Source: a bacterium
GTDB lineage: Bacteria > Krumholzibacteriota > Krumholzibacteriia > LZORAL124-64-63
Assembly: GCA_031441465.1 (NCBI GenBank)
Contig: JANOEP010000009.1
Location: 1-64,000, forward strand
Reading direction: 5' to 3'
Length of the DNA stretch: 64,000 nt
Position 1 is the first letter of the stretch, and each line of letters opens with the position of its first letter. Of the stretch, positions 1-58,971 are shown piece by piece. A model generated the notes under the pieces. It was not told where the DNA came from. It saw nothing but the letters and a program-made list of their open reading frames with translations, and did no database searches. Both the position numbers and the translations under genes were made by a program.

Positions 1-140
1 CCTCCATGCCTCCGGAAGATCGGGTCCAGGTCCGTCTGGGGGAATCCCAGAGGAATCTGGCCTACTTCCGGCCGGCGGCAAGGGGTGCCGCAGTTTTAGA
101 CCGGCGCGACAGGTGCCGCACTTTTCAGCCGGCGTTTACA
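1..140 (-). mobile_element. End of an IS21-family insertion sequence (rest lies left of the window)
   Basis: Minus strand reads TGTAAACGCCGGCTGAAAAGTGCGGCACC from 140. Two 23-bp near-identical repeats (84-106 GGTGCCGCAGTTTTAGACCGGCG; 112-134 GGTGCCGCACTTTTCAGCCGGCG) plus a weaker third near 57-76. A TG...CA terminus with multiple subterminal repeats is typical of IS21. Confidence 0.7.
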
Positions 141-156
141 GCATCGTACATATCAG

Positions 157-1899
157 GTGGGGCGGGTCGCGACGCGCCATGGGTACAACTACAACGTGGC
201 GCTTGTGCGGACTCCTGAGCAAGGGCCAAGCTATGCGCAAGACACCGCACGCGACGCCATCGCGGACCTGGACCCTACCTGGATTCTATTAGTCGGCATC
301 TGCGGTGCAGTACCAGAGGCCGAGTTTACCTTGGGCGACGTGATCATGGCCACCAGACTTCACGACTTCGTCGTGGGAGCTCAAGTCGAAGATCTGCCTC
401 CGGAGTTCATGAACCAGGGTGGCCCGATGGCAAAAGAGATCCAAGACCTCGTGGCTATTGCTCCGGCCCTTGACCTGGGTCCTTGGAATCACGTCCGCCA
501 AGTCCATGCGAAGCGTCCACAAGTCACGCTATCGCCAAAGCGATTCTATGGTTCCGACAACTGGAAGCGCGCAGCAAGATCTGCTCTAAGGTATCACTTC
601 AAAGGGGAAAGCCCAAGAACTCGGCCGCTGTTCACCACACGATCTGTCGCCTCCTCTGGGAACCTCGTCAAGAGTTCTCGGCTTATGTCCCAATGGAAGA
701 ACGCCTCCCGCGAGGTTGCGGCCGTGGAGATGGAGCTGTCGGGAGTCTACGTGGCTGCGCGGAGGCGGCAGAAAGAGTATCCTATAGTGGCCATCCGGGG
801 CATTAGCGACATTGTGGGCTTTCGTCGCGAGATCGAGTGGACAGCATATGCTTGCGCCACTGCGGCGTCGTTTGCGATTTCGCTGCTTCGGAATCTCCCG
901 CCTCATTTCCTCATCCCACATGAGGCGACCCGATCTTCAGGGAGCTCGCCGGAAAAGAGCTCTTTGACTGAAGCCACGCTGGTCTTTGATCTTTCCCTAC
1001 AATTTCACAGGAACCGCTGGTTCTTTCGCGACCGCCCCATTCTCCGCCAACATGGACGTCAGATTATCGAGATCGCTAAATGGGCTCAAGAGAACGACCG
1101 TTGCGACCTCTTTCTTCTTGTGTTGCCCGCTCTGCGGGAATATTGCGATCTCACAGGACTGTGGGCCGAACGCAAAGACTTCACATCAACGGGCCTGTTG
1201 TTCGCAGAACGATGCGGCAATCACGAGAGCCGCATCGGAAGCCTTGTTGCGCAAGCATGGTTGCTCAGCGGCCAGGGACATACAGATGCCGCTATGAGTC
1301 ACGTCAATGCTGCAATCAGAATAGCCCGTAAGGCCTCGTTGCCACTCTGGGAGTGTGAAGCAATGGCGATGGAAGCCGTTGTGTTGCGCAGACGGAGGGA
1401 CCACGCCGCCGCAATCAGATCATGCCAGAACGCTTTGCGCGTCGCAAGTCGCCTGCAAGGTAAGGGCCGCACACATGCAAGTGCGTGGATTCGGTATGAA
1501 CTCGGGCTGAATGCCCGCGACATCGGGGCATTGGACAAAATGAACCAGGAACTCATGGCGGCCCGCCGCGTTCTTCGCGTCGATAAACTCGGCAACCCTT
1601 CTTTCAACGTCGAATTTGCATGGTTGGTTCACGCGGCACTGGGCTTCGTGGCCGAAACCAAGGGGGACTACCAGCAGGCGGAGGCAATATACATGCAATC
1701 GCTGGCGTTCTTCTCGCAAGGTGGTAGTAGGTCTCACGTTGCCAGCATTCTCCTACGACTAGCCAACCTGAGTAGGCACCTTGGCAAGATGTCTGATGCA
1801 ATCAGAAATGCCGAGGAAGCGCGCGAAATTGGACGAGTACTCCAGTCTGCGCGCATTCTGCTTGCCGCAGATGCCATACTGAATGACGGAAGAACATAG
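157..1899 (+). CDS. MTA/SAH nucleosidase (purine phosphorylase fold) fused to C-terminal TPR repeats; probably 5'-truncated by IS21
   Basis: Motifs ILLVGICGAV, LGDVIMA, ASSGNLVK, AVEMELSG, IRGISD; C-terminal helical repeats (GDYQQAEAIYMQSLA). Frame is open back to the IS end (HRTYQVGR) and lacks the usual first strand and catalytic-Glu segment. Confidence 0.8.
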   Translation: MGRVATRHGYNYNVALVRTPEQGPSYAQDTARDAIADLDPTWILLVGICGAVPEAEFTLGDVIMATRLHDFVVGAQVEDLPPEFMNQGGPMAKEIQDLVAIAPALDLGPWNHVRQVHAKRPQVTLSPKRFYGSDNWKRAARSALRYHFKGESPRTRPLFTTRSVASSGNLVKSSRLMSQWKNASREVAAVEMELSGVYVAARRRQKEYPIVAIRGISDIVGFRREIEWTAYACATAASFAISLLRNLPPHFLIPHEATRSSGSSPEKSSLTEATLVFDLSLQFHRNRWFFRDRPILRQHGRQIIEIAKWAQENDRCDLFLLVLPALREYCDLTGLWAERKDFTSTGLLFAERCGNHESRIGSLVAQAWLLSGQGHTDAAMSHVNAAIRIARKASLPLWECEAMAMEAVVLRRRRDHAAAIRSCQNALRVASRLQGKGRTHASAWIRYELGLNARDIGALDKMNQELMAARRVLRVDKLGNPSFNVEFAWLVHAALGFVAETKGDYQQAEAIYMQSLAFFSQGGSRSHVASILLRLANLSRHLGKMSDAIRNAEEAREIGRVLQSARILLAADAILNDGRT

Positions 1900-2588
1900 T
1901 GCACTCCCGCACCTTGCTTGAGCAATGTCCGCTTCGGGCGAATGCGCCCTTTGTCGCCATTGTCGGCAACTCCGGCGTTGGCAAGACGACGCTCACGATG
2001 CTTCTGGCGCGGGATCTTCGCTGGGCACCTCTTGTCGAAACTCTCGTCGACAATCCGTACTACCCAGAATTCGTGCGGGATAGGGCTTACTGGGGGCTCC
2101 ATATGCAACTCCACTATCTCGCGCGCCACGCAAGAGATTCGGAGTTCATCCGTACGGCAACAGTCGGATGCGTACGCGACAGGAGTTTTTGGGAGGGCAG
2201 GCATATTTACGCTCCTGCGCTTCTCGCGCAGGGGGACATGTCATCTCGTGACTTCGCCCTCTACACAAACCTATATGACTCTGTGGCTCCCCTGTTCCCC
2301 GTTCCCCATCTCATACTTTATCTGCAAGCCGAGTGTGATTGGCTGCAGTTGCGCATTGCGCGACGTGGCCGCATTGGAGAAGAGGCCGCACTTACAAGCC
2401 TGCTCGTGCGAACGAATGAGCTCTACGAGATTTGGCTCTCAACATTCACCCTTTGTCCGGTGCTTCGCTATAATGCGGCCGCCCTCGATTGCCTGCACAA
2501 TGCCGCGCACTTGACCTCGATCGTACATGATGTATGCTCAGCACTGGATTGGCATTTGCCGGGCGATTACGTTCCGACGACGGAGTAA
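1899..2588 (+). CDS. Deoxynucleoside kinase family protein (dAK/dCK/dGK-like)
   Basis: P-loop GNSGVGKTT, NPY..F, DRSFWE, PHLILYL, lid RIARRGR..E; start overlaps upstream stop (TAGTG). Confidence 0.85.
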   Translation: MHSRTLLEQCPLRANAPFVAIVGNSGVGKTTLTMLLARDLRWAPLVETLVDNPYYPEFVRDRAYWGLHMQLHYLARHARDSEFIRTATVGCVRDRSFWEGRHIYAPALLAQGDMSSRDFALYTNLYDSVAPLFPVPHLILYLQAECDWLQLRIARRGRIGEEAALTSLLVRTNELYEIWLSTFTLCPVLRYNAAALDCLHNAAHLTSIVHDVCSALDWHLPGDYVPTTE

Positions 2589-2592
2589 TGAT

Positions 2593-3717
2593 TTGGACCT
2601 CGCTGAGAGCCTTGCTGCGCTGGAGCCATACGGGCTGATTCCAGTTCCAATTGGGCATGTAGCACCACATACTGAAAGGTACTCTGGGCCTATCGTTCGC
2701 CCTGCTCATAAATCGTCCATGTGCTCATGCCCGCTTCGCGTGAATGCGATGCTCCTTGATTACTCCAAGTTTGTTGGGGGGTGTACCAGTAAGTGGATCC
2801 GTGCTGGCTCGATTGCGTTTGGCCTGGATTCGTATTGCACAGTTCGTGTCGCATTTTCTAGCTTACATGACGGGATTGCCGTCTTGGGAGCCAATAGGCG
2901 CGCTACTGTGGTCCGTCACGTCGCGGAAGTGATGCGTCACGTTCTCCGAATAGATACGGCCCTTGGTATTGAGGTGGAGATTCTCCGAGAATCCCCATGG
3001 GTACACATGGGGCTTGGCTCAACCCCAGCCCTTCAGTGCGCTGTAGCTTCAGCTCTGAACAATCTCCTCGGTGCGCCCATCCCCTCTCACCAAATGAGGG
3101 CGGTTCTGCTGAATAATTACGCGGAGGAGATACCAGACGACAGCAACCGTGTTCTCCGCGTCCAGGCCATGGGAGCAGGTGCTGCGATCGCATTGGATGG
3201 GGGGGGGATGATCGTACTGGCTGGCTCGGCAATTCCTGTTGCGCGCATGAGCATTCCCCAAACACACGCTTTCGTGATTGCTCTTCCTCCCGGCGCCGGC
3301 ATTGAGACATCGGTAGACGCGCTGTACAAGGACGTTAGCAGCTATCCATACCTGGATCACTACTCTGAGGACCTTCGCAACGCAGTGGCATATGACGTCT
3401 TATACAGACTCCTTCCGGCAATGACATTACAGGATCTTCGCACCATTGGACAGGTGATCCAGGAGCATCGCCTTAGCGATCGTCAGATTGCCCGGTACTT
3501 TGGCCGCTACCCCTCTTGCCGGGACGGGATTGCGACGCTAAAGAACTTGCTGACTACTGGGCTGGCGGAAATAGGATCAATTACATCTACTGGCCCGGCA
3601 CTATTTGTGCTAACTCGTGAGCCTGAAGAAGCTCAGATTGCATTCGCCGATATCGGCTGGAATCACGTTCGCGTACGCGCCAACAACAATGGCCTCCTTA
3701 CTACTTCACTAGACTAA
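2593..3717 (+). CDS. GHMP-superfamily protein, beta-ribofuranosylaminobenzene-5'-phosphate (beta-RFA-P) synthase / C-glycoside synthase-like
   Basis: CPLRVNAMLLD...AGSIAFGLD N-terminal motif, HMGLGST GHMP loop, GAGAAIALDGGG, C-terminal SITSTGPALF. Likely TTG start at 2593 after GGAG (ORF track starts at 2527). Confidence 0.7.
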   Translation: MDLAESLAALEPYGLIPVPIGHVAPHTERYSGPIVRPAHKSSMCSCPLRVNAMLLDYSKFVGGCTSKWIRAGSIAFGLDSYCTVRVAFSSLHDGIAVLGANRRATVVRHVAEVMRHVLRIDTALGIEVEILRESPWVHMGLGSTPALQCAVASALNNLLGAPIPSHQMRAVLLNNYAEEIPDDSNRVLRVQAMGAGAAIALDGGGMIVLAGSAIPVARMSIPQTHAFVIALPPGAGIETSVDALYKDVSSYPYLDHYSEDLRNAVAYDVLYRLLPAMTLQDLRTIGQVIQEHRLSDRQIARYFGRYPSCRDGIATLKNLLTTGLAEIGSITSTGPALFVLTREPEEAQIAFADIGWNHVRVRANNNGLLTTSLD

Positions 3718-3729
3718 CCTGCGCTTGGA

Positions 3730-5355
3730 TTATAAGACTACGGAGGCAGTGCGCTCTTCCACAGATCGCACAATGCGGTCGGACATTAGACCCACGACCA
3801 TTTTCGCGATATCGCCATGTAGGAGCGAGGACGCCGAAGCCCGCGGCTCTAGGAACCTCTCAATCGCGTTGAGCGCAGCTTCGGTACCCCGACCTGATTT
3901 GCGCCCTGACATCAACTCACGCAAGCAGATGTGCGCCTGAGCCCCAGCAAGCATCTCGATAGCTAGCACACAGCGGAGATTTCGCAAAATCATCGAGGCC
4001 TTTCGCGCGCACCACATGCTATTGCTGATATGGTCTTCTTGGTTGTTCTTGGTTGGAATACTGTCAGCGCTTGCGGAACCGCAGAGGGTGCGACACTCTG
4101 CCACGACTGCACTGGCGGTAGAATGAGCGATTGACAACCCAGCCCGCGGCGCCGAACCAACGGTGAGATTTGTCGGCAGACCATAACTCGTCATCGGGTC
4201 AAGGAGTCTCGCTACGCGGCGTTCAGAAATCGAAGCCGCGTCGGTGAGTGCCATGGAAAGGAGGTCCATCGCCTGGGCAAGATACTGTCCGTGGAAGTTG
4301 CCGCCACTTAAGACATCGACGCCTGAGTTAGGGGTGTCATCTGTCAAGAAGACGAGAGGGTTGTCCGTGGCGCTGTTCAACTCCACATTAATTATTCCGG
4401 TTGCGTATTCGATTGCCTCCCTTACAGGACCGTGAACTTGCGGAGCACAGCGCAGGGAGTAAGCATCCTGTACCCGGCAACTGGAAGTCGCCTTGCCTCC
4501 AAGGCTAAAGCGTCGGGCTTCTGGCGTACATAGAGAAGTACCCTCTGTGATCATTCGCACATTCGCCGCTGACGCAATTTGGCCTCGATGGGGCCTACTA
4601 TTGTGGATCCTCTCGTCGAATGCACCAAGATGACCACGCACAGCCTCAAGCGTCACGGCCAATGCCACGTCAGCGTGCCGCATTGCCAGAGCCGCTTCAT
4701 CCAGCGTAATAGCCGCTAGAGCAGCGCTAACGGTGCTCCCGTTAATCAGCGAGAGAGTTTCCTTGGCTTCGAAATGGAAGGAGGCTGCAAGACCAGCGCG
4801 GCTCAGCGCTTCGTCTGCCGGAAGCACCGCTCCTTGATACATCACCCGCGATTCCGGATGCCCAATCATCGCTGCGGCAATATACGCCTGCGGAGCAAGG
4901 TCCCCGCTCGCGCCCACGCTACCTTGCTCAGGAACTACAGGCGTGATGTGCGCGTTGAGAAGATCCACAAGGCGCTCAACAACGCACGGCCTGACGCCTG
5001 AGTGGTTTGTCGCAAGTGAATGAGCTCGCAGCAACATTGCCGCCCGCACAACATCTGCTGATAGAGCGGCCCCAATTCCCACACAATGATCGCTGATAAT
5101 TTGAAGCTGGCTTTCAGCACTGTCTGCCGGGTTGGCCCGCCTTGATTGTAGGGCACCAAGTCCTGTGGTGACGCCATATGCAGGTGGTGAATCGTTGTGC
5201 AGCCACTGGGCAACAAGGAGTGCTCTGGTTCTATCTAGGGCTTCGTATGTACTGCGCCCCATCGTCAATACGCTGCCTGAGTTCTGCGGACTTGCTTCAG
5301 CACGGGCAACTTGGACTACATCTCGGATAGTCAGGTCTTGCGTCCCAACTTCCAT
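3730..5355 (-). CDS. MIO-dependent aromatic amino acid ammonia-lyase (histidine ammonia-lyase-like, atypical specificity loop)
   Basis: YGVTTGLG, GSVGASGDLAP (MIO triad ASG), LINGS, RVQDAYSLRC, DNP, GGNFHG, NQEDH; GGAGG SD upstream. Confidence 0.9.
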   Translation of the reverse strand: MEVGTQDLTIRDVVQVARAEASPQNSGSVLTMGRSTYEALDRTRALLVAQWLHNDSPPAYGVTTGLGALQSRRANPADSAESQLQIISDHCVGIGAALSADVVRAAMLLRAHSLATNHSGVRPCVVERLVDLLNAHITPVVPEQGSVGASGDLAPQAYIAAAMIGHPESRVMYQGAVLPADEALSRAGLAASFHFEAKETLSLINGSTVSAALAAITLDEAALAMRHADVALAVTLEAVRGHLGAFDERIHNSRPHRGQIASAANVRMITEGTSLCTPEARRFSLGGKATSSCRVQDAYSLRCAPQVHGPVREAIEYATGIINVELNSATDNPLVFLTDDTPNSGVDVLSGGNFHGQYLAQAMDLLSMALTDAASISERRVARLLDPMTSYGLPTNLTVGSAPRAGLSIAHSTASAVVAECRTLCGSASADSIPTKNNQEDHISNSMWCARKASMILRNLRCVLAIEMLAGAQAHICLRELMSGRKSGRGTEAALNAIERFLEPRASASSLLHGDIAKMVVGLMSDRIVRSVEERTASVVL

Positions 5356-5470
5356 AGGATCTACCTCCTATACTGCGCAGTTGAAGCGCTTGAGCAAGTG
5401 CATGATGCCCGTACCTTCCCAACGGTCTGCAGTTCTACCATACCACAGAGCCAGCCTGCAAAGTTCAATC

Positions 5471-5872
5471 CTATTTCTTTTGCAATGAGCTGACCACCCC
5501 GGGCAGGACCTTTTCCGCCGACCGCCCGATCACATACCCGCCCAGGCCAATCTCGACGATGTCCCAGAGCTTCAGAACCTCGGCCTCGCCCAGGTTCGGA
5601 GCCGACCAGCCAAGCCACCGGGCCACGATCAGCGCCACGAAGGTGAGCATCGTAATCGGCCGCCAGGTCCGCTGCAGCCAACTCTGGCCCTGCGCCTCGG
5701 ACTTGACGACATCGGCGGCCGCCCGCTCGATCTCGGAAGACCGCTCCAGAACCGCCGCCTGGAGCGCCTGCTGAAGCTCGATTCGCTTCAACTCGTGCTC
5801 GGGATTGGGGAAAATCCGGTCCGCAACCGAGCCCGCGACCTTCCCCAGAATGCCCAGAATTTCGCCAACCAT
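5471..5872 (-). CDS. Holin (3TM / gene-transfer-release holin family)
   Basis: SWLQRTWRP motif, hydrophobic segments, GLGGYVIGRSAEK; adjacent to endolysin; start ATG 5872 with SD. Confidence 0.8.
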   Translation of the reverse strand: MVGEILGILGKVAGSVADRIFPNPEHELKRIELQQALQAAVLERSSEIERAAADVVKSEAQGQSWLQRTWRPITMLTFVALIVARWLGWSAPNLGEAEVLKLWDIVEIGLGGYVIGRSAEKVLPGVVSSLQKK

Positions 5873-5883
5873 CGCGTCTCCTC

Positions 5884-6378
5884 TCAGGCATAGGCCCGGT
5901 TCAACCAGCCGCCCTGAAACACAACCTGATCTGCGCTGCGAGCGACCCGGAGCCTGTATTCCCCTGCCGCTTCGGATCGCAGCGCCGCCATCAGCGCTGC
6001 TTGGTCGGATTGCCTCGCGGCACCGCATGTTTCTGCCCCGAGACGACCGTCGAGTGCCACCCGTCGGCCGCAAGCATGAAGAGCCCGCTGCAGACAGGTC
6101 ACCGCGGTCTGATGTCCCAAATTGACAGCCAGGTCGAAGGCCTTGATGGCGATCACTTCCGGCAGGAATTCGTATCGGTGCCCATGCCAGTAGCGCTCCC
6201 AGTAGACCTCGATCGCCTGGGCTCGGGTCAGGTTCTTGACGTCCAGATCGGGATTCCAGCGCTGGGCGATCCCGAACCTGGTCGCGCCGCCGTGATCGAC
6301 CGGGTTGTCGGTGTAGACATCGCCTTCGTGCTCGAGGACGACCTCGATCGCTCGGTCGAAGAGTTCTCTGCTGGTCAC
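5884..6378 (-). CDS. Endolysin, glycoside hydrolase family 108 with peptidoglycan-binding domain
   Basis: LEHEG...D.GGATRFGI, FDLAVN.G, LQRAL...DG.LG, GWLNR. Confidence 0.9.
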   Translation of the reverse strand: MTSRELFDRAIEVVLEHEGDVYTDNPVDHGGATRFGIAQRWNPDLDVKNLTRAQAIEVYWERYWHGHRYEFLPEVIAIKAFDLAVNLGHQTAVTCLQRALHACGRRVALDGRLGAETCGAARQSDQAALMAALRSEAAGEYRLRVARSADQVVFQGGWLNRAYA

Positions 6379-7697: not shown

Positions 7698-9212
7698 CTA
7701 TCGGCGGGCTTCGTGCGCACTCACGCTCTTCTTGCTCGTATCGTCGCCGCTGGCGACTTCTTCAGATTCGTCCTCCGGCTCCTTCTGGCTCTCCGGCACT
7801 TCACCGGAGACGCTGATCCCGTATTCCTCAGCCAACGCCTTCTCCCGGGCCAGTTCCGCGAAGACGTCCTCGATGTCCTCGCCCTTCTCGGCCAGGAAGC
7901 CGGTCCTTGTCCCCATCCCGTTCTGGATCGAGATCACCGCAGCCCTGGCTTCCTTCTCGGGGTCGATCCATTGCCACCCGCGCGGGCGATGCCGGACGGC
8001 CATGTAGCGGGAGGGATCGCGGGAGGCGAGCTTCAAGGTCCCGGTCAGCATCGCCATGCCGAGCCAGGCCGAGTACAGCGGCCGGCGCCACATGTCGATG
8101 AAGTCCTGCTGGATGGACCGCCAGTCGTCGCGCTCAACCAGCGCGAAGCTCCGCATGGTGGAGTAGCTGACGCCCTCAGCGTCGTTGGCCAGCACGTTGT
8201 AGAAGACGCTGAACCCCGAGGCGATCTTCCGCAGCATCTGCTTGATGAACGCAGGGAACTGCGCCGTAGGATGGTCGGGCTCCCAGGCCTTGAACTCGTA
8301 GCCGTCAGGGACGATCTCGAAGGTGCCGGGGTTGGCCTCCATCGTCGCCGGCCTGGGGTCGCTCGAAAGATCCCCGGCCAACGAGTCGGCCCGCTTCTCG
8401 AACAGCCCCATCTTCGAGGCACCGATCCTGGCTGCGACAGCTTCGCTCTCCTCGTAGGCGTTGAGCATGTGCGCCGGGACCATGACCGCGTGGACCCAGG
8501 TTACCCCGCGGGTCTGGTTTACGCGCTCGGGGTCATACAAGTGGAGCATCTCGGTCGCGGGGACAAAGTAGCGCTCCCGCACCAGGTCGGTGCCCGGCGC
8601 ATTCCAGATCCAATAGCCGACCGCGCGCCCGATGGCGTCAATTTCGACGCCCATGCGGATCTCGTTCTGGGTACCGCGGCGGGGCCGACTGAACGTCTCA
8701 TCGATCAGGTCGGCGTCGATCGCCTGCAGGGCCAGACCATGGGGATTGCCCTCGAATCCCCGCCACAGGCGGACGAAGGCCTCGCCGTCACAGGCCACGG
8801 TCTTGAGGATCAGCTTCTCGAAGCGTCGCAGGGTGAGCTTGCCGTCGACCGTGACCGGAGCGCTGGCCCAGGCGTTCCAGGCGGCGTCGATGGCGGTGTT
8901 GGCCTTCGTGTCCGGCTGGTCCCCGGCCCAGACCTGGGCCTGGAGCTTGATCCCCATCGGGCCGATGACGTTGTTCACCAGCAGCCGGAAGTAGCGTTTG
9001 ACGTAGCTGTTGTTGCGGCCGAGCTCACGGGCCCGGGCGCGCAGGAGCCGCAGATCGCCGCGGATCTCGTCGTCCGCGGACCGAGCCTGCGCGATCCAGT
9101 CCAGCAGCAGCCGGTGGACGCCCGCCCCATCGAAGGCGCCGCGCTGGCCACGGATTTCTCGCCAGGCAAGCTGGAACGCGCGGCTGACGCGTTGGTGGAG
9201 CGACCGCTTCAT
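7698..9212 (-). CDS. Phage portal protein, lambda family
   Basis: LRARARELGRNN, DGEAF, GVEID..GR.V.YW, QTRGV, YSTMR, WIDPEKE; ATGA overlap with upstream gene. Confidence 0.92.
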   Translation of the reverse strand: MKRSLHQRVSRAFQLAWREIRGQRGAFDGAGVHRLLLDWIAQARSADDEIRGDLRLLRARARELGRNNSYVKRYFRLLVNNVIGPMGIKLQAQVWAGDQPDTKANTAIDAAWNAWASAPVTVDGKLTLRRFEKLILKTVACDGEAFVRLWRGFEGNPHGLALQAIDADLIDETFSRPRRGTQNEIRMGVEIDAIGRAVGYWIWNAPGTDLVRERYFVPATEMLHLYDPERVNQTRGVTWVHAVMVPAHMLNAYEESEAVAARIGASKMGLFEKRADSLAGDLSSDPRPATMEANPGTFEIVPDGYEFKAWEPDHPTAQFPAFIKQMLRKIASGFSVFYNVLANDAEGVSYSTMRSFALVERDDWRSIQQDFIDMWRRPLYSAWLGMAMLTGTLKLASRDPSRYMAVRHRPRGWQWIDPEKEARAAVISIQNGMGTRTGFLAEKGEDIEDVFAELAREKALAEEYGISVSGEVPESQKEPEDESEEVASGDDTSKKSVSAHEARR

Positions 9213-9766
9213 CGCTCGAACCCCGGGCCGGTGAACGACACGAGGACCGGCCGGGTGACGAAACCGGGGTTCTTGAGACTGGCCAGGCGGGATTCGAAGC
9301 TGGTCAGTAGGCTGACCGCCTCCTTGACCGGCATCTTCGCGACCACCCGACCGGCAATTTGATAGCTCTCCATGCCCGCCGGCAAGCGGCCCTCGATGTG
9401 GGCCCGCAGCGCCGTGACCGCCCGCTCGATCCACTCCTGTTCGGTGCCTTCGGTGGCCTCGGCCAGGTTCGGCAGCACGGTGACCGTCCCGGTGGCGATC
9501 TCGTAGACCTCACCGCCGACGCCAGAGACGCGCTCGACCCACTTGTAGAGCCCGGGGACGAACCCATCGGCCGTATCAGTGGCCGCGATGGTGACTACAA
9601 AGTCGTCTCCGTCCGCGGCGGCAGTCTTGGCCAGAACGCTCGCGCCGGCCAGATAGACCTGGAGCGTCCACCCTTCTGATGCCGGATAGTCGGCAAGCCG
9701 CCTGCGGTAGCAGACAGTCGTGCCGGCGGCGAACTGATCGGGCAGGTGCGTGAGTTCTTGTGCCAT
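9209..9766 (-). CDS. Head completion / head-tail adaptor (gpW-like C-terminus)
   Basis: Directly upstream of portal; ESYQIAGR motif typical of gpW-like proteins. Confidence 0.65.
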   Translation of the reverse strand: MAQELTHLPDQFAAGTTVCYRRRLADYPASEGWTLQVYLAGASVLAKTAAADGDDFVVTIAATDTADGFVPGLYKWVERVSGVGGEVYEIATGTVTVLPNLAEATEGTEQEWIERAVTALRAHIEGRLPAGMESYQIAGRVVAKMPVKEAVSLLTSFESRLASLKNPGFVTRPVLVSFTGPGFER

Positions 9767-25126: not shown

Positions 25127-28667
<3,541 letters not shown>

Positions 28668-28679
28668 ACCGGGCCCCCT

Positions 28680-29909
28680 TTAGTGGTCATGCGTCGCGCC
28701 CGACTTCCCGATGTCGGCCTTGACAATGAAACTGTTCTCGGCCGCGTACATCTGGCCGGCGGTCAGTCCGGACAACACTTCAACCCATTCGTCATCGCGG
28801 CGACCCAGCTCCAGGATGGCAATCTCGAACAGGTGGCCGTCGCGGATGAACACCACGTCCCAATCCCGAAACGTCTGCAGTGCGTCGGCCTTGACCGCCA
28901 GGGGAACGGTGGCCTCATCGACGATGATCTCGCCGACGACAAAGAGTCCCGGCCGCCACCGTCCGTTGGGGTTGGGCAATTCGATCCTGGCCAGCATCGT
29001 TTGCGTGTCTTCGGAGCCGAACGGCGAGATGTAGCTCACGACACCCACGGCGCCGGTCGCGCCCTCGCCCGAGGTGACCGTAACGGCCTGGCCGATCTTC
29101 AGCTTTTCGAAGTCCCTGCGGTGCACGTTCAGGTCGACCCACACCTCGCCGAGATCCGCCACGGTGTAGATCGGCTCGCCCTCCCTGACGAACTTCCCCG
29201 GGGTGACGTCCTTGCGGATTACGGTGCCGGCCATCGCCGACCTTACCTCGTAGAGCTGGAGGCTCTCGTTGCTCTCGATGACGGCCATCACTTCGTCCTT
29301 GGCCACGTGTTCACCCTGTCGTTTGCGCACCTCTTTGACGACGCCAGGGAAGCGCGGCGCGACCTCCCGGAGGTGGTCCTCGTTGGGACTGATGCGGCCA
29401 AACACCCTGATGACGTCCCTGATCGCGGCGGGACCGACCATGGCGATGGTGATTCCCGAGCCTTGGGCGGCTTCATCGGTAATCGTCGTCCGCCCCTCGT
29501 AGGAGGCGTATTCCCAGTAGTGCTTCGCGCCCGCATACGTGGCAGTCACCACAACATCGAACGAGTGGGGCTCGTCCACGACCTTGTCGCCGACCAGGTA
29601 GTCGCTTTCCTTGGCAAACAGGAAAGTGTCCACGCGTCCGGCGATTCGGCGTAGTTCAATGGACAGATCCACGTCCGCCGGGTCGACGGCTTTGTCCTTG
29701 TCGTAGAAGTAGACGCGGAATTGTGGCGGCACGCCCCGCTCGAAGATGGTGACTTCGGTTTTGAAGTCACCGTCGGAAAGCAGGCGTCCACCATGAGGAC
29801 CTGTCGTCACATTCCCAACGACAGTTTCGCCGTGATCGTCTCCGCTGCGCTGACACGAGACCAGGCCCAGCGCCAGGGGGATCACCAGATAGAGGAGCAA
29901 CTTCTTCAA
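28680..29909 (-). CDS. czcB: RND efflux membrane fusion protein, CzcB type
   Basis: Lipoprotein-like signal (LGLVSC), GPHGGRLL, VADLGEVWV, WRPGLFV, EVLSGL, C-terminal HDH. Confidence 0.9.
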   Translation of the reverse strand: MKKLLLYLVIPLALGLVSCQRSGDDHGETVVGNVTTGPHGGRLLSDGDFKTEVTIFERGVPPQFRVYFYDKDKAVDPADVDLSIELRRIAGRVDTFLFAKESDYLVGDKVVDEPHSFDVVVTATYAGAKHYWEYASYEGRTTITDEAAQGSGITIAMVGPAAIRDVIRVFGRISPNEDHLREVAPRFPGVVKEVRKRQGEHVAKDEVMAVIESNESLQLYEVRSAMAGTVIRKDVTPGKFVREGEPIYTVADLGEVWVDLNVHRRDFEKLKIGQAVTVTSGEGATGAVGVVSYISPFGSEDTQTMLARIELPNPNGRWRPGLFVVGEIIVDEATVPLAVKADALQTFRDWDVVFIRDGHLFEIAILELGRRDDEWVEVLSGLTAGQMYAAENSFIVKADIGKSGATHDH

Positions 29910-29925
29910 GAAAGGTATCCTCCGC

Positions 29926-31350
29926 TTATGGCTGCAGGGGTTGACCGGTGAGCCGTTCGATCTCGGCCACCAGCAGGTGATATGACTTCGCCGCTTCGAT
30001 GTAGTCCTGCCTCACGGCCAATAGCGTCTCCTGCGCATCGGCCGTTTCCAGGTAAGAGAACCGACCCTGCCGATAGCCTTCGGCGGCGATCTCCAGCGAT
30101 TCCTCGGCCTGGGGCAGTATCTCACTGTGGATGCTCTCCACCGTGCGCACCGCCTGCACCAGTTCCTGGTGCAAACCGTGGAGTTGCGTTCGCAAGCGCG
30201 ACTCCGCTGCAAACCGGCTCAGCGGGGCAACCTCAGCCAGCGCTTGCGCCTCCTCGCGGGACCCCTGATTGCGGTCGAACAACGGCAAGGGCAGTGAGAC
30301 TTCGGCGACGAACGCAAAGTCATCGGGCCCGTTGAATCTGCGCACACCGCCGCCGACCGTCAGGTCGGGAGTGCGCCTCGACTTCGCCAGTTCCAACTCG
30401 GTCAGGCGCAACCGCCTTTCCGCTTCCAATCGGGCCAGGGCAGGACTGGCAGCAATGCGCTCAGCCAGTGTCTCGAAGGTGGGAGGTTGCACTACGGCGA
30501 ACAGATCCGCTTCCACCCGTGTGAACGTCGGCGTCGTATCGCCCCAAGTCGCGGCCAGCCGATATCGCGCCGCTTGCCATTCGCGACCGGCCTGTTCCTG
30601 CGCGATGCGGCTTCTCGCGAGTCCGACCGTCGCCTTTCTCCTCTCCAACACGGTCCCCTTGCCCACTGCCAGCCGCTCCTCTGCGCTGCGGACCACGGAC
30701 TCCGCCGCTTCGATCGCCTGCTCGGCCAAGGCCAGCTCATGCTGGGTCGCCAGTGCCGCGATGAACTTGGCCGTCACTTCGGACAGCACGTCCATGCGCC
30801 TCAATTCGTATTCGCTCCCTGCCAGATCGCGTGCCGAAGTGGCCACGTCGCGCCTGGCCGACCGCTTCCCCCCGAGCTCGATGAGCTGGCTGAGCTGAAG
30901 CGTCGTCTGCGCGACGGCAACGCCGCCGAATTCGCCAGAGCCGGCGAAGTCCTCCATCGTCAGGGCAGCAGCAGGGTTGGGCCGCAGGCCTGCCTGCAGC
31001 AGCCTCGCCTCACTCACCCGCAGTTCGGAAGAAAACGCCGCCAGATCGGGGTTCTTCTGCAGTGCCGAAGCTAGCGCTTGCCTCAATGTCAAAACGCCTT
31101 CCGGCGTTTGAGCTTGGGCGGTCGACACAACGGCTGCGACGACTATGATCGACAAGAGGCCGATACCTGAGCGGATGCGAGAGCCAGGTAAGGGCACCGG
31201 TCTGAGGGCACATGGACCGTCGGCGCCTCGCGTTGAATAGGGGCTGGATGCCGTGACCGGTGCGGGGCCCACCCGACCGGCGCCACCAGCCCTATGCCGG
31301 ACCCCGATCGCTCGTTTTGTTCCGATCCCGAGTACTGCGTTCATGAACAC
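29926..31350 (-). CDS. czcC: Outer membrane efflux protein, TolC/CzcC type (start uncertain, possibly 31197)
   Basis: NPDL, QAGLRPNP, QLIELGGKR, PDLTVGGG, PLPLFDRNQG, YRQG..SYLE. Confidence 0.9.
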   Translation of the reverse strand: MFMNAVLGIGTKRAIGVRHRAGGAGRVGPAPVTASSPYSTRGADGPCALRPVPLPGSRIRSGIGLLSIIVVAAVVSTAQAQTPEGVLTLRQALASALQKNPDLAAFSSELRVSEARLLQAGLRPNPAAALTMEDFAGSGEFGGVAVAQTTLQLSQLIELGGKRSARRDVATSARDLAGSEYELRRMDVLSEVTAKFIAALATQHELALAEQAIEAAESVVRSAEERLAVGKGTVLERRKATVGLARSRIAQEQAGREWQAARYRLAATWGDTTPTFTRVEADLFAVVQPPTFETLAERIAASPALARLEAERRLRLTELELAKSRRTPDLTVGGGVRRFNGPDDFAFVAEVSLPLPLFDRNQGSREEAQALAEVAPLSRFAAESRLRTQLHGLHQELVQAVRTVESIHSEILPQAEESLEIAAEGYRQGRFSYLETADAQETLLAVRQDYIEAAKSYHLLVAEIERLTGQPLQP

Positions 31351-31545
31351 GATCGATTTACCTTCCCCTCGTGGCCCCGGAAGTCGACTTGGGCCGAATG
31401 CCGGCGGTTCCGCGGTGATCGAAACAGCCCTGCGCCACCCACGGCATGCGCGGGTATTGATCTCGTGAGCACCGCAACTCCGCTAATAGCGGATGGCGCG
31501 CCAACTTATCCTAGAATGAAAGGAACTGCGGAAGGCGGCTGGATT

Positions 31546-31887
31546 TCAGCAGCGGAGAACGGTACAGCGTTCGGGTGTGACAGGGTCACAATGAGCGGCG
31601 GTTACCGGCAGGCTTTGGCTGGATTCTGAATAGTCAACATCAATCAGGGCGCAAGGAACGGACAGCCACACTCCTGAATCTGGACCACTAAGACGAAAGA
31701 CATGCCCGGCGGCCACAAACCCGTGGCCGTGATCGTCGTCATGTGAGCTGTCATGTGAGCTGAAGTCCCGGGATTCATCGAAGTGCATTGCCGCCAAGTG
31801 ATTTAAAACGGCTCCGCACGTGAAGATCGATGCGATCCACGCGAGCGCGAGCACGGCGGCGAAGTGTGGGCGTCCCGTTCGTTTCAT
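31546..31887 (-). CDS. Small His/Cys-rich exported protein upstream of czcC (CzcI-like)
   Basis: Signal-like N-terminus, HDSSHDDDHGHG, C-terminal CTVLRC; TATCGT 7 nt before ATG suggests a leaderless start. Confidence 0.55.
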   Translation of the reverse strand: MKRTGRPHFAAVLALAWIASIFTCGAVLNHLAAMHFDESRDFSSHDSSHDDDHGHGFVAAGHVFRLSGPDSGVWLSVPCALIDVDYSESSQSLPVTAAHCDPVTPERCTVLRC

Positions 31888-32066
31888 GCGCGCCACGATA
31901 GGCGAGGTATTTGAAACGCGCAAGGGTACCCCAAGTAATTTCGTGGGAATTTCCGCCATTGGTCGACTGCCGCCGGATGAATGCTGACATGATGGCCTCT
32001 CCCCACTCGATTCACGGCAGCAGTTACGGGACGATGCCGATCGAGTAGATGGGAAGGGCAGACCTG

Positions 32067-33128
32067 CTAGTGGTCATGGCGATGGTGGGCATCGGGTGTG
32101 TGTGGATGATCGTGCTCAATGGTCTCGTGCCGATGCAGGTGAACGTGCGGTTCCGCTCCGTCCACACCCGCGGCATGCTCATGCCGGTGGTGCTCATCAT
32201 CGTGGGCGTGGGCGTGCTCATGCATGAGTGCCTCGTGTCGATGGGAATGCGCGTGGCGCTCGCGCAAGAGCAACACGACTCCGCCGATCATCGCGGCCAT
32301 CGCAGCCATGTCGATCGCCGAAAGCCTCTCGTCCAGGACGACCGTGGCGAGTATGGCGCCCAGGAACGGCGCGGTCGCGAAGTAGGCGGCCTCGCGTGCG
32401 GCGCCCAAAAGGCGCAGGGCGTAGGCGTCGAGCACCACGCTCGCCCCATAGCTGACGGCTCCGAGGGCCGCGGCGGCCAGCACCAGGGACGCGGACGGCA
32501 ATCGCTCTCCGATCGCCAGTCCCAGGCCCAGGTTGACCATGCCTGCCGTCAGGGTCTTGATCCGCACCACCGCAAATGGATCGCGTAGAGACAGTCGCTG
32601 AGTGAGGTTGTTGTCGAGCCCCCAGCAGAGACACGCTCCTGTGATACAGAGGACACCCACCGCGTCGGCGCCGACTTCCCCGGGGCTCGTCTTAAGCACG
32701 CCGGCACCGAGCAACACCAAGACGGCCGCCAGTGCCGTTCGTCGGCCGAGATGCTCCCGGAATACGACCACGGCCAGCAGAATCGTGAACGGAGCCTCGA
32801 GGTTCAGCAATAGCGAGCCGACGACGCCGCGCACCCGGTCCAGGCCGACAAGCATGAGAATTGGGGCGAGGATTCCCCCGGCGACCACGACCCCTGAGAT
32901 GAAGCCGATATCGGCGCGCTTCAGGCTCGCCTCAGGGACGTTTCGCCGAAAGGGCATCGCCAGGCTAATGGCGATCCCGGCCCCGCCGTAAAGAAGGCCA
33001 GCCAGAGTCACGGGCCGAACATCGGCCAGCAGCAGCTTAGCCAATGGAGCACTGAGGCCGAATAGGGCTGCCGCCAGCAAGCCGGCCAAGGCGCCGCTGC
33101 TGCTGATCTTCGAACCGAAAGGAGTCAT
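32067..33128 (-). CDS. DMT/EamA family transporter with His-rich C-terminal tail
   Basis: Ten hydrophobic segments, LLNLE, WGLDNNLT, tail HAHSHRHEALMHEHAHAHDDEHHRHEH...HPHTPDAHHRHDH. Confidence 0.88.
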   Translation of the reverse strand: MTPFGSKISSSGALAGLLAAALFGLSAPLAKLLLADVRPVTLAGLLYGGAGIAISLAMPFRRNVPEASLKRADIGFISGVVVAGGILAPILMLVGLDRVRGVVGSLLLNLEAPFTILLAVVVFREHLGRRTALAAVLVLLGAGVLKTSPGEVGADAVGVLCITGACLCWGLDNNLTQRLSLRDPFAVVRIKTLTAGMVNLGLGLAIGERLPSASLVLAAAALGAVSYGASVVLDAYALRLLGAAREAAYFATAPFLGAILATVVLDERLSAIDMAAMAAMIGGVVLLLRERHAHSHRHEALMHEHAHAHDDEHHRHEHAAGVDGAEPHVHLHRHETIEHDHPHTPDAHHRHDH

Positions 33129-33373
33129 GGTTGGCAACGCGCCTTCGTCACAGGACCGTCGCATGGGGAACCATGGTCACAATAGTCGAGGCCGTTTCCA
33201 GCAACAACAATCCGATCATTGGCCGACGTTCTTAATTCTCGATCCACGGCACCCCCGACAACATGTCCCGTCTGCCACCCGTCAAGCCCCCTTGACCACC
33301 ACCGGCTGCCCATTCGCTGCTTACCGGTCAATTGCCGTCATCCGACCCGAGGACAACGATTGAGTTCTTTCGT

Positions 33374-36681: not shown

Positions 36682-37245
36682 GTGGCCAGGCAAGCGAAGA
36701 AGGAGTTGATCTCCCAGCGCGAGTACGCTCGTCGGCTCGGCGTCTCCCACGTGGCAGTCCAGCGCGCCGTGAAGACGGGCCGGATCTCGACGGTGAATGG
36801 GAAGGTCGACCCGGCCCAGGCCGACCGGCAGTGGCAGGAGAACACCGACCAGAGCAAGCCCCGCAACCGGATCACCGGCAGCCCCAAACAGGCCCGGACG
36901 CCCGGAGAACCGTCTGAGCCCATGGACATGGGCGTGGCCGACGAGGTCATCGGCGGCACCAACACGGCAACCGGCTATGCCAAGGCCCGCGCCCCCCGCG
37001 AGCTGTACCAGGCGCAACTGGCCAAGCTCGAGCTGGACCGTCAACGCGGCACCCTGATCCGGGCCGACGAGGTCCGCATCGGGGCGTTCAACATGGCCCG
37101 CAAGGCCAGAGACCAGTTGATCGCCCTGCCCGAGCGCGTCGCTGCGCTCTTGGCCGCTACCCAGGAGCCCGCCGAGGTCCAACGCATCCTCGAGGAAGAG
37201 ATCGAGCGGATCTGCCAGGAGGTCGCGGATGCAGAACGGCCGTGA
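36682..37245 (+). CDS. Terminase small subunit (Nu1-like)
   Basis: N-terminal HTH SQREYARRLGVSHVAVQRAV..GRI; coiled-coil C-terminus; overlaps terminase large subunit gene. Confidence 0.8.
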   Translation: MARQAKKELISQREYARRLGVSHVAVQRAVKTGRISTVNGKVDPAQADRQWQENTDQSKPRNRITGSPKQARTPGEPSEPMDMGVADEVIGGTNTATGYAKARAPRELYQAQLAKLELDRQRGTLIRADEVRIGAFNMARKARDQLIALPERVAALLAATQEPAEVQRILEEEIERICQEVADAERP

Positions 37246-39079
37246 CGTCTACGAGACCGCCTACCGGGCGGGCTGGCGCCCCGAGCCGCGGCTGACCGTC
37301 AGCACCTGGGCGGACGCGCACCGTGTCATGGGCAACCGCGCTGGCCACGCGGCGACCCACTGGCGCACGGCGACCACGCCCTACCTGCGCGAGATCATGG
37401 ACGCCCTGGGCCCCCGCTCGCCGGCGCGGCGAGTCGTCTTCATGAAGGGCTCCCAGTTGGGGGGCACCGAAGCAGGCAACAACTGGCTCGGGTTCGTCAT
37501 GCACCACTCGCCCGGTCCGATCCTGGTCCTGCGTCCGACCGTAGACGAAGCCCGGCGCTTCAGCCGGCAGCGCCTGGACCCCATGATCGCCACAACTCCG
37601 GTGCTACACGACCTGGTCCGCGAAGCGCGTTCACGCGACGGCGGCAACAGTCTTCTTATCAAGGAATTCCCCGGCGGGGTCCTGTTCCTCACCGGCTCGA
37701 ACTCGGCGACCGGCGTCAAGTCGATGCCGATCCGCTGGCTCTTCTGCGACGAGATCGACGAGTACCCGGGCGACGTGGACGGCCAGGGCGATCCGATCGC
37801 GCTCGCCGAGAAGCGGACCACCGGCCCGACCTACTCACGGCGGAAGATCTTTCTCGTCTCGACGCCCACGATCAAAGGCATCTCGCGGATCGAACGGGAG
37901 TATCTGGTCTCGGACCAGCGGCGCTACTTCGTCCCCTGCCCTCACTGCGGCAACTACGACTGGATGCGCTGGGAGAACATCCGCTGGATGAACGACGACC
38001 CGAAGACCGCCGTCCTCGCCTGTGTCGCCTGCGGCGTCCTGATCGAAGAGCGGTTCAAGACGCAGATGCTCAGCCAGGGTCAGTGGCGCCCTACGGCTGT
38101 CGGCAACGGCGACACCATCGGGTTCCACCTCTCCAGCCTCTACTCCCCGCTTGGCTGGCTACCGTGGGCGGCAACCGTCGCCGAGTTCCTGGAGTCCAAG
38201 GACAACCCGCTGCGGCTGAAGAACTGGGTCAACAGCGTGCTGGGCGAGACCTGGGAAGAACGCGGGGAGACCGTCGAACCCGGCAGTTTGCTGGCACGGG
38301 CGGAGCGGTATACGGCCGAGGTCCCGGCCGGCGTGGGTGTGCTCGTCGCTTCGGTGGACGTCCAGGGTGACCGCCTGGAGTGCGCGGTGAAGGGCTACGG
38401 CGTCGCCGAGGAGTCCTGGCTGGTCGCCTTCTCCCAGTTCCATGGCGATCCCGGGCGCGACCAGGTCTGGCTCGATCTCGACCGCTTCCTACGGCAGGAG
38501 TTCACCCACGAGTGCGGCCAGAAGGTCCCGATCACCTGCGTGGCCGTCGACAGCGGCGGGCACCACTCCGAGCAGGTCTACCGCTTCTGCCGCGCCCGGA
38601 TCGACCGGCGCGTGTTCGCCGTCCGCGGTGGTTCCGAGCGCGGCAAGCCTCTGGTCGGCCGCCCGTCCGATCACAACCGCTATCGGGCGAAGCTGTTCAC
38701 CCTCTGCGTCGACACGGGCAAGGAGATCGTGTACTCGCGGCTGCGGATCGGGAGCTCGGGGCCCGGCTACTGCCACCTGCCCGAGTGGATCGACGCCGAG
38801 TATGTGGCGCAGCTAACCGCCGAGAAGGCCATCCGCAAGTGGGTGAAGAACCGCGGCACGGTTCGCGAGTGGGTCAAGACCCGCGAGCGCAACGAGGCGC
38901 TCGATCTGGAGGTCTACTGCCTGGCCGCCCTCTACATCCTGGGGCCGGCGTTCGTGAAGTCCCTACCGGAGCGGGCCGCCGCCCTGGCCCACCGGCGCGA
39001 GACGCCGGCGGTGACCGAACCGGAGCCGTCCGCGCCAATACCGCGGCGCCGGGGGTGGATCGATGGGTGGAGGGGATAA
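37229..39079 (+). CDS. Terminase large subunit, lambda gpA family
   Basis: TPYLREIMD, MKGSQLGGTE, DEID.YP...GDP, STPT, CPHC, VDVQ, DSGG, RNEALD..VY. Confidence 0.95.
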   Translation: MQNGRDVYETAYRAGWRPEPRLTVSTWADAHRVMGNRAGHAATHWRTATTPYLREIMDALGPRSPARRVVFMKGSQLGGTEAGNNWLGFVMHHSPGPILVLRPTVDEARRFSRQRLDPMIATTPVLHDLVREARSRDGGNSLLIKEFPGGVLFLTGSNSATGVKSMPIRWLFCDEIDEYPGDVDGQGDPIALAEKRTTGPTYSRRKIFLVSTPTIKGISRIEREYLVSDQRRYFVPCPHCGNYDWMRWENIRWMNDDPKTAVLACVACGVLIEERFKTQMLSQGQWRPTAVGNGDTIGFHLSSLYSPLGWLPWAATVAEFLESKDNPLRLKNWVNSVLGETWEERGETVEPGSLLARAERYTAEVPAGVGVLVASVDVQGDRLECAVKGYGVAEESWLVAFSQFHGDPGRDQVWLDLDRFLRQEFTHECGQKVPITCVAVDSGGHHSEQVYRFCRARIDRRVFAVRGGSERGKPLVGRPSDHNRYRAKLFTLCVDTGKEIVYSRLRIGSSGPGYCHLPEWIDAEYVAQLTAEKAIRKWVKNRGTVREWVKTRERNEALDLEVYCLAALYILGPAFVKSLPERAAALAHRRETPAVTEPEPSAPIPRRRGWIDGWRG

Positions 39080-50558: not shown

Positions 50559-50969
50559 TCAGTCCGGGACCCCCGCCTTGAGGTCCCGCCACATCACCCG
50601 CTGCTTCCGCCAGTCCGGAACCGCGGCGATCGGCCGGACCATCTTCTCGCCGACGGGGGCCCGGCCGCCATCCGAGCGGGGCAGGTACAGGATCTCCTCC
50701 TGGATGTCCGGAGCCAGGAGAACCAGGCTCATGATCTGCGTCATGCGGGCGCGCGTCACCAGCTGCAAGCGGGCCAGCTCGGCGTAATCGGCGACTTCCC
50801 CTTGCCGATGGAGGTCCGCCATGTGGATCGCCAAGGCCATCACGCGCGAGATGCGAGGCACGCCGCCCAGAGCCGGCGGGTTCGCCTTGACCCCTTCCTG
50901 AATCACCTTCCTGCCACGCTTCATACTCCGGAAATGGACTTCCTTCGTGATCTTCAGCGGCCGTGTCAT
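50559..50969 (-). CDS. Recombinase-associated HTH protein
   Basis: YAELAR...VTRARMTQIM.L..LAPDIQEEIL; ATGA-coupled to recombinase. Confidence 0.7.
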   Translation of the reverse strand: MTRPLKITKEVHFRSMKRGRKVIQEGVKANPPALGGVPRISRVMALAIHMADLHRQGEVADYAELARLQLVTRARMTQIMSLVLLAPDIQEEILYLPRSDGGRAPVGEKMVRPIAAVPDWRKQRVMWRDLKAGVPD

Positions 50970-58896: not shown

Positions 58897-58971
58897 TGGC
58901 TCCCCGGGTAGGGCTCGAACCTACAACCCTGCGGTTAACAGCCGCATGCTCTACCATTGAGCTACCGAGGA
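58897..58971 (-). tRNA. tRNA-Asn (anticodon GTT)
   Basis: TCCTCGG TA GCTC AATGGTA GAGC A TGCGG CTGTTAA CCGCA GGGTT GTAGG TTCGAGC CCTAC CCGGGGA G CCA: complete cloverleaf with encoded CCA. Confidence 0.97.

Follow-up and report, generated by a model that had tools for sequence, protein, structure and literature searches.

What is the function of a compact block of four genes that adjoins the lysis cassette of a prophage in a bacterium of the phylum Krumholzibacteriota? The genome (GenBank assembly GCA_031441465.1) amounts to 3.49 Mb in 74 contigs, and the block lies at the beginning of contig C9 (JANOEP010000009.1), of which the first 64 kb, here called the window, were analysed; the start of the window is thus also a contig end. 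The genes encode a PNP-fold nucleosidase joined to tetratricopeptide repeats (TPR; ORF1), a kinase of the dNK family (ORF2), a GHMP-fold protein related to the C-nucleotide synthase ForT (ORF3) and an MIO ammonia-lyase (ORF4). An earlier note on this DNA had suggested that together they make and phosphorylate an unusual C-nucleotide, either as a chemical anti-phage defence or as a signal. The block is interpreted here, with a probability of about 0.5, as the cargo of a prophage slot that encodes an undescribed, nucleotide-centred anti-phage system, inactivated in this genome. Three other explanations jointly keep about half of the probability, and they are taken up below at the points where the evidence bears on them.

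Foreign genes in a variable prophage slot

Re-reading of the open reading frames confirmed the four genes in the window at the positions given in Table 1. ORF1 and ORF2 overlap by 1 nt, and the third gene most likely starts at TTG 2593, a codon that has GGAG 9 nt upstream, lies 4 nt past the ORF2 stop and coincides with the start of a relative of ORF3 (P0003). The lyase gene, with GGAGG upstream of its ATG, lies downstream of the lysis genes and is co-directional with them, and its stop converges on that of ORF3 with 12 nt between the two. The tight packing of a plus-strand trio against a convergent lyase, as described in the earlier note, is therefore borne out by the coordinates. All four of its ORFs are present, and two of its gene bounds need correction: the ORF3 start at nt 2527 is probably too far upstream, and the 5' end of ORF1 has been cut by a repeat.

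Table 1. Features at the left end of the window (positions are those of the window).
Feature	Position (nt)	Strand	Length	Remarks
Repeat end, most likely of an insertion sequence	1-140			multi-copy; forms the contig start
ORF1, nucleosidase-TPR protein	157-1899	+	580 aa	gene frame open from 142, first possible start GTG 157; PNP_UDP_1 and TPR_12
ORF2, dNK-family kinase	1899-2588	+	229 aa	apparently intact
ORF3, GHMP-fold protein	2593-3717	+		longest ORF 2527-3717 (396 aa); weak GHMP_kinases_N match
ORF4, HAL-type MIO ammonia-lyase	3730-5355	-	541 aa	Lyase_aromatic
Junction of cargo and conserved prophage backbone	5356-5499			onset of homology to related prophages
Prophage lysis cassette	5471-6378	-		holin 5471-6073; GH108 endolysin 5884-6378

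The base composition sets the block apart. Over bases 1-5000 the guanine-plus-cytosine (GC) content per kb is 0.55-0.59, compared with 0.64-0.69 in the phage core and 0.64-0.73 in the contigs of the genome. The lower GC relative to the phage core, which had been remarked on before, holds likewise at third codon positions, where the four cargo genes have values of 0.55-0.62, and the holin, endolysin, portal and terminase genes values of 0.73-0.90. The composition is uniform across all four cargo genes. Two other studies, one with a groundwater run (X3) and one with a biofilm run (X4), yielded contigs that contain near-identical pieces of the cargo, one of the X3 pieces (nt 3525-3808) crossing the junction of ORF3 and the lyase gene with no differences. 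The arrangement is therefore not an assembly artefact; since these pieces represent the same element, they carry no evolutionary evidence.

The block directly adjoins the gene of the holin (Pfam PF11351, GTA_holin_3TM, 2.4e-10; phrog_3427), which is followed by that of the endolysin (Glyco_hydro_108, 1.5e-19, and PG_binding_3; phrog_315). Portal genes 81-94% identical to that of the window occur in nine other genomes of the family, and five of the related prophages (L105-L109; portal 83-93% identical) were compared with the window. In all five, homology begins at nt 5470-5499, the 3' end of the holin gene, and to the left of this point each carries different DNA with a GC content of 0.54-0.60. 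In four runs, too, contigs depart from the window sequence left of nt 5486-5508. PADLOC models matched 14 of the 25 proteins encoded in the slots of the five relatives: L108 carries a type I restriction-modification system and PDC-M23A/B, L109 a type III methyltransferase (1390 bits) with a GajB-like/NERD helicase, and L107 a PglX-like methyltransferase (360 bits), mad1 and PDC-S02/type IV-like matches. The slots of L106 and L105 show methyltransferases only, accompanied in L106 by a weak ZacB match. Judged from these alignments, the position downstream of the holin is a variable cargo site that is mostly filled with defence genes in the relatives, and bases 141 to about 5490 of the window are foreign cargo in it. 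The cargo slot beside the lysis cassette, postulated in the earlier note, is thus real, and because the slot of the relatives mostly holds defence genes, the odds that the cargo of the window is defensive are higher.

A defence-type nucleosidase cut by a mobile repeat

ORF1 matches the Pfam models PNP_UDP_1 (PF01048, 51.5 bits) and TPR_12 (56.5 bits), and in PADLOC the models PDC-M60C (2.4e-15) and PN-superfamily effector (1e-08). All 18 homologues tested match the same two PADLOC models, with values of 1e-12 to 1e-26. A housekeeping role as MtnN or futalosine hydrolase was rejected, the scores being far under the cut-offs (31.9 bits against 169, and 30.5 against 124.7). The EME and SD motifs, which we take to have active-site roles in MtnN, are retained in ORF1. 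PNP domains that are 40-62% identical to that of ORF1 are joined to LabA/NYN, AAA ATPase, Ser/Thr kinase and other modules; an AbiTii-like domain accompanies the PNP domain in P0190, and further partners, going by their Pfam accessions, are presumably TIR and AlbA_2. A domain shuffled among so many partners shows the pattern of an immune effector. From these profile matches and fusions, the PNP domain of ORF1 is classified as being of the defence-effector type (Cap17/DtcC-like) and not as a housekeeping enzyme, much as the earlier note had supposed. A preprint describes PNP domains of the Cap17 clade as cleaving ATP and dATP in CBASS and Detocs, and as occurring also at the N-terminus of Avs proteins and together with TPRs (10.1101/2023.01.24.525353).

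The copy in the window is damaged. Contigs C11, C43 and C13 end in copies of bases 1-140 that are identical over 139-140 nt, C44 ends in one of 146 nt at 98.6%, and in all four the shared stretch stops exactly at base 140. In two runs from which this DNA may stem, a contig of 724 bp that covers the repeat has a depth of 471 (X1) and 342 (X2), compared with 29 and 23 for flanking DNA, and is thus 14-16 times deeper. The repeat is most likely the end of an insertion sequence (IS). At least five contigs terminate in it, and much of the fragmentation of the assembly is probably due to a highly active IS.

Full-length relatives of ORF1, P0153 (729 aa, 46% identity) and P0154 (715 aa, 45% identity), can be aligned with its frame as far as the junction with the repeat (HRTYQV... 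from base 142), and the PNP_UDP_1 match begins at profile position 41; ORF1 is therefore truncated at its 5' end. About 45 N-terminal residues, with the first strand of the PNP fold, are present in P0153, P0154, P0160 and P0180 and missing from ORF1. Residues 11-236 of ORF1 cover profile positions 41-223 of 233, which leaves the catalytic domain incomplete, and a linker stretch of roughly 85 residues found in both P0153 and P0154 is lacking as well. A tblastn search of the assembly with the N-termini of seven homologues did not recover the missing 5' piece, and the contigs of four runs showed no ORF1 allele free of the repeat. A scan of viral_contigs with P0153 gave no match. The mobile repeat has removed the promoter side and some 45 codons of the first gene, and the system is therefore probably inactive at present.

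A nucleoside kinase and a relative of ForT

ORF2 matches PF01712 with 97.4 bits (cut-off 27; E = 1.2e-27), and its best solved relative is 8puu, a 'deoxynucleoside kinase' (2e-20, residues 17-192 aligned). In the translation, the P-loop (GNSGVGKTT), the DRS motif and the Arg-rich lid (RIARRGR) are all intact. By its profile match and motifs, ORF2 is a standard (deoxy)nucleoside kinase of the dNK family.

ORF3 has the GHMP fold, with ForT as its best Foldseek match. ForT, PyfQ and beta-RFA-P (RHP) synthase are GHMP-fold enzymes that couple 5-phosphoribosyl 1-pyrophosphate (PRPP) with an aromatic carboxylate and release CO2 and pyrophosphate (PMC8183095). GHMP kinases were defined by a GHMP_kinases_N score above the Pfam cut-off together with the motif II consensus P-x-G-S-G-L-G-S-S-A; ORF3 scores 22.6 bits (cut-off 22.3), and the motifs of its family read P-x-R-L-N-A-M, H-x-G-L-G-S and N-Y-G-E-E. 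The ESM Atlas gave generic 'GHMP family kinase' clusters alone. Its branch is extremely rare: a word-indexed search of 5.8 billion proteins returned a single relative, and HMMER against 1.84 billion representatives gave 203 matches at E<=1e-3, four of them at E<=1e-80 and the others from 1e-62. ORF3 is absent from all 207 other genomes of the phylum. A search with a two-sequence ORF3 alignment found no relative in genome_contigs or viral_contigs, using exact peptide patterns that can miss relatives of 40% identity.

Among 61 members of the family, models of beta-RFA-P synthase matched 51 (best 4e-26) and those of homoserine kinase 58 (best 3e-13). For 22 of 25 distant members a beta-RFA-P synthase model was the top NCBIfam match, all under the cut-offs, the best scores being 105.6 for NF040726 (cut-off 328) and 91.4 for TIGR00144 (cut-off 113.5). 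Residue R71 of ORF3 is conserved in all 61 sequences, and H160 in at least 90% of them. In a profile alignment, the PsRL of ORF3 falls on PaRL of ForT and H-x-G-L-G-S on H-S-G-F-G-S, so that R71 corresponds to R19 of ForT and H160 to H99. In ForT, R19 (motif I) binds both PRPP phosphates and H99 heads the pyrophosphate loop (PMC8183095). The G134/R135 stretch of ForT, which belongs to the 5'-phosphate site and is needed to bind PRPP, lies outside the HMMER alignment with the ORF3 family. No bona fide beta-RFA-P synthase was found in the genome itself, and five other genomes gave sub-threshold matches alone. Because of the family-model matches and the residue counterparts, ORF3 is placed in an uncharacterised sister clade of the C-glycoside synthases beta-RFA-P synthase and ForT, as a rare branch outside the curated family. 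The ForT-type assignment of the earlier note is partly supported, by the Foldseek match and the sister-clade placement, with scores that stay below the curated cut-offs. As far as sequence can tell, there are perhaps even odds that ORF3 works 'like ForT', and it may instead be a kinase.

Conserved gene order and the wider ORF3 family

A metagenome contig of 2,058 bp (L001; GC 0.53) carries the C-terminus of a TPR protein resembling P0154, a dNK gene and a relative of ORF3, in the same order as in the window. Protein identities are 41% for the TPR protein, 43% for the dNK (203 aa) and 40% for the ORF3 relative. L001 is the sole other contig of the ORF3 branch that was recovered with flanking genes, and these neighbours are identical in kind to those in the window. 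The contig stops inside the third gene, and therefore gives no information on a lyase. In two further loci (L002 and L003), a 29%-identical relative of ORF3 is flanked by a NUDIX gene and an AAA_28 P-loop gene.

The wider ORF3 family was sampled at 80 genome loci (L004-L083) from candidate-phyla bacteria, DPANN archaea, Streptomyces and kin, and clostridia. Partners were counted within 4 kb; at 17 of the 80 loci one flank is shorter than 2 kb, and since the loci are related to each other the counts are not independent. A PrnB-like (50) or U32-like (21) partner is present at 71 loci, and a methyltransferase at 69, in all lineages. A pyridoxal-phosphate (PLP) decarboxylase accompanies 29 loci, mostly of actinomycetes and clostridia, and a HAD phosphatase 25, of actinomycetes and clostridia. 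Ham1 (39 loci) and a P-loop kinase (31 loci) are partners in the candidate-phyla/DPANN/other group only. Of 13 family proteins scanned, six are fused to a methyltransferase and two to a PrnB-like domain.

Clusters of this kind look biosynthetic rather than defensive. Together with the fusions, they speak for an explanation in which the cargo of the window would be a biosynthetic cassette for a small molecule or nucleoside analogue (a secondary metabolite, cofactor or signal) that has nothing to do with phage defence. The lyase would make an acrylate acid, the ForT-like enzyme would ribosylate or phosphorylate it, and the kinase and nucleosidase would furnish precursors or act in salvage. MIO lyases are common first enzymes of natural-product pathways, which would fit such a scheme, and ForT and its kin are themselves enzymes of antibiotic or cofactor pathways (PMC8183095). 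However, the PNP domain of ORF1 is of the kind seen in defence effectors, not in salvage enzymes, and has a TPR array fused to it; the cassette occupies a prophage slot that holds defence genes in relatives; and the typical tailoring genes of the wider family are all absent here. The biosynthetic cassette is the alternative that survives best, and is considered unlikely.

The gene set of the wider family deserves a remark of its own. Its combination of decarboxylase, hydroxylase-like gene, GHMP enzyme and methyltransferase resembles the psilocybin pathway in its logic, and a phosphorylated or ribosylated aromatic amine is a possible product. Literature searches linked PrnB neither to GHMP enzymes nor to Patescibacteria, and among the papers listed none linked beta-RFAP synthase to a methyltransferase or Ham1.

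An additional lyase

ORF4 belongs to the MIO lyase superfamily (PF00221, Lyase_aromatic, 504.9 bits) and scores below the HutH cut-offs (TIGR01225, 438.4 against 539.15; NF006871, 459.5 against 524). It carries the ASG triad, as well as a His and a QEDH motif at positions that we take to be of the HAL type, and it has an Asp where relatives carry Ser or Ala. None of its relatives anywhere is more than 52% identical to it. Matches to ORF4 occur in 195 of 208 genomes of the phylum, none above 46% identity, and the host has a HutH-like gene of its own on contig C16 that is 39% identical to ORF4; the lyase gene is therefore a foreign extra copy. The possibility that it is the host's own hut gene was rejected in view of the foreign composition and the second copy in the genome. 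A scan of viral_contigs with the lyase gave no match. It is a putative member of the operon, tied to it by adjacency and composition only.

The four genes might also have to be taken apart. In that case, the PNP-TPR protein alone would be a single-gene abortive-infection defence, the dNK and GHMP proteins would be a nucleoside/sugar salvage pair in which the GHMP protein is a plain kinase, the lyase would be an ordinary histidine-degrading enzyme, and the genes would be together through joint descent rather than function. Many PNP-domain homologues are indeed single proteins with sensor domains of their own, ORF3 lies above the Pfam cut-off for GHMP kinases, with homoserine kinase and ForT tied on Z as its matches, and the lyase retains the His and Glu-Asp-His motifs that we assume to be of the HAL type. 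Yet the gene order has been kept at 40-43% identity with the frames coupled (1-nt overlap, 4-nt gap), and L001 has the same neighbours despite the extreme rarity of the ORF3 branch. The motif-II His and motif-I Arg common to ORF3 and ForT, and the HutH-like gene that the genome already owns, also argue against such a division, which is judged less probable again than a biosynthetic cassette. A chance mosaic of decaying foreign genes without joint function, left by IS activity, would account for the IS-like repeat that cuts ORF1 and for the missing linker of about 85 residues, and is very improbable given that ORF2, ORF3 and ORF4 are full-length with intact motifs, that the three-gene order recurs in L001 and that one composition extends over all four genes.

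Proposed function of the cargo

The preferred interpretation is that of a nucleotide-centred anti-phage system, the biochemical steps of which are all deduced from family membership, homology and gene order. The TPR part would gate the nucleosidase, which on infection would destroy (d)ATP or a related nucleotide. Between them, the kinase and the ForT-like enzyme might produce or restore a small molecule resembling a ribose phosphate or a nucleotide, and this could act as an antiviral analogue, a signal or an antidote. The lyase may, speculatively, supply an acid of the imidazole-acrylate type. An elaborated version, in which the ForT-like synthase would couple PRPP with the acid made by the lyase (e.g. 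urocanate), the dNK-type kinase would process the result into a non-canonical, possibly C-linked nucleotide, and this product would either poison phage replication or switch the TPR-gated (d)ATP nucleosidase as a second messenger, is offered as a long shot.

C-nucleotide chemistry at this locus is speculative, and two points speak against it as originally conceived. A product derived from PRPP would already be a 5'-monophosphate, and C-glycosides would not be cleaved by an enzyme of the PNP fold. The interpretation given in the earlier note is partly supported, its C-nucleotide part being conjecture. Its statement that the four-gene set falls outside named systems agrees with PADLOC, in which no model covers the set. 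The defining partner genes of Detocs, CBASS, Avs, PDC-M60 and pVip are absent from the four proteins (PADLOC, Pfam), in which Pfam detected no histidine kinase, receiver, CD-NTase, STAND NTPase or radical SAM domain. Among the papers listed in literature searches, none linked a GHMP-fold enzyme to anti-phage nucleosidases, a result on which the supplements of 10.1101/2023.01.24.525353 may bear.

Several observations weigh against an anti-phage system of this kind. PADLOC returned no match for ORF3 or ORF4 and weak P-loop matches for ORF2. The match of ORF3 to the beta-RFA-P synthase model NF040726 is 19.5 bits (cut-off 328) and TIGR00144 is unmatched, while ForT and homoserine kinase tie on Z. 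The essential T106 of ForT aligns by loop position with P167 in the ORF3 branch and with Ser in the wider family, T166 being adjacent. Co-occurrence, which the earlier note had regarded as decisive, is confirmed for the TPR, dNK and GHMP-like genes by L001, the only independent locus with the three-gene order, and it is unsupported for the fourth gene, a lyase beside a GHMP-like gene having been found at none of the 83 loci searched. Neither a dNK, a PNP-TPR protein nor an MIO lyase was found by tblastn at any of the 80 loci of the wider family, with their biosynthetic appearance. Two of the five slot relatives show methyltransferases only, and these may be orphan enzymes rather than defence genes. 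Finally, ORF1 is truncated, and the set therefore cannot be functioning in its entirety in this genome.

It has been recognised only recently that PNP nucleosidases act as effectors in the immunity of bacteria and eukaryotes, and neither a nucleoside kinase nor a ForT-like enzyme was found reported as a partner of such an effector. If the three proteins cooperate, defence would be coupled to a pathway that makes or rebuilds an unusual nucleotide, and the locus would be a possible source of new nucleoside-analogue chemistry; if the elaborated version outlined above is right, no GHMP-fold C-nucleotide synthase would have been known in immunity before ORF3. The analysis has two by-products. One is a sister clade of beta-RFA-P synthase, large and uncharacterised, that has a conserved set of partners in candidate-phyla bacteria, DPANN archaea, actinomycetes and clostridia. 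The other is a defence hot spot downstream of the holin gene of a prophage family, in a phylum that has been little studied.

Other features of the prophage region

An RND efflux operon occupies nt 25127-33164 (AcrB-like, 25127-28315; HlyD-like, 28680-29909; OEP, 29926-31350), along with an EamA transporter. To the left of the RND/EamA stretch are the tail genes (to about 25 kb), and to its right the methylase and terminase genes (35-39 kb). The portal gene (nt 7698-9434, minus strand) and the terminase gene (nt 37229-39079, plus strand) are far apart and on opposite strands, and the prophage may be rearranged, composite or degenerate. The related portal genes on G157:C559, G121:C249 and G140:C159 have one in-frame TGA each, which could be a frameshift, a broken gene or recoding.

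Further to the right, nt 53419-58083 encode a TatD-like DNase, a protein that weakly matches QueC, an unassigned ORF and a KAP-family P-loop NTPase. This set lies between a serine recombinase gene (nt 50966-52561) and a tRNA-Asn gene (nt 58897-58971), and is possibly a second defence or DNA-modification islet. A 186-nt stretch (nt 58721-58905) beside and partly inside the tRNA-Asn gene recurs at G000:C16:11221-11405 with 89.8% identity, and may represent a second tRNA-Asn region or the remnant of an attachment site.

Comparison with known systems

ORF1 resembles the Cap17/DtcC-type effectors of CBASS, Detocs, Avs, pAgo and DRT8 systems in having a PF01048 domain that matches the PN-superfamily model of PADLOC. 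It shares with some Avs and Detocs proteins the combination with TPRs (10.1101/2023.01.24.525353), and the EME and SD motifs are kept; as in those effectors, the PNP domain of its close homologues has been swapped among many partner domains. The locus differs from these systems in that Pfam found no STAND NTPase, SAVED, receiver or pAgo partner among the four proteins, that the partners are a dNK and a ForT-like enzyme, and that this copy of the effector is truncated at its N-terminus.

Prokaryotic viperins, with associated nucleotide kinases, make chain-terminating nucleotide analogues. The cargo is similar in bringing together a small-molecule enzyme and a nucleotide or nucleoside kinase in a defence context, and the PADLOC model VakA weakly matched the dNK of L001 (5.5e-06) and ORF2 (0.0037). 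It differs in that there is no radical-SAM viperin, the enzyme has the GHMP fold, and an effector-type nucleosidase is present too.

With ForT, PyfQ and beta-RFA-P synthase, ORF3 has in common the GHMP fold, the motif-I Arg (R19 of ForT) and the His of the pyrophosphate loop (H99). In contrast to ForT and beta-RFA-P synthase, the ORF3 family scores under the curated cut-offs throughout, has an extra conserved N-terminal segment of about 40-60 residues and its own invariant N-x-x-E-E and V-Q motifs, and carries Pro at the position of ForT T106 in the ORF3 branch.

Defence hot spots of the P2/P4 type are known in temperate phages and their satellites. The slot described here shares with them a fixed position in a conserved prophage backbone and a different low-GC defence cargo in each relative, but it is located directly downstream of the holin gene and belongs to a prophage family of a different bacterial phylum.

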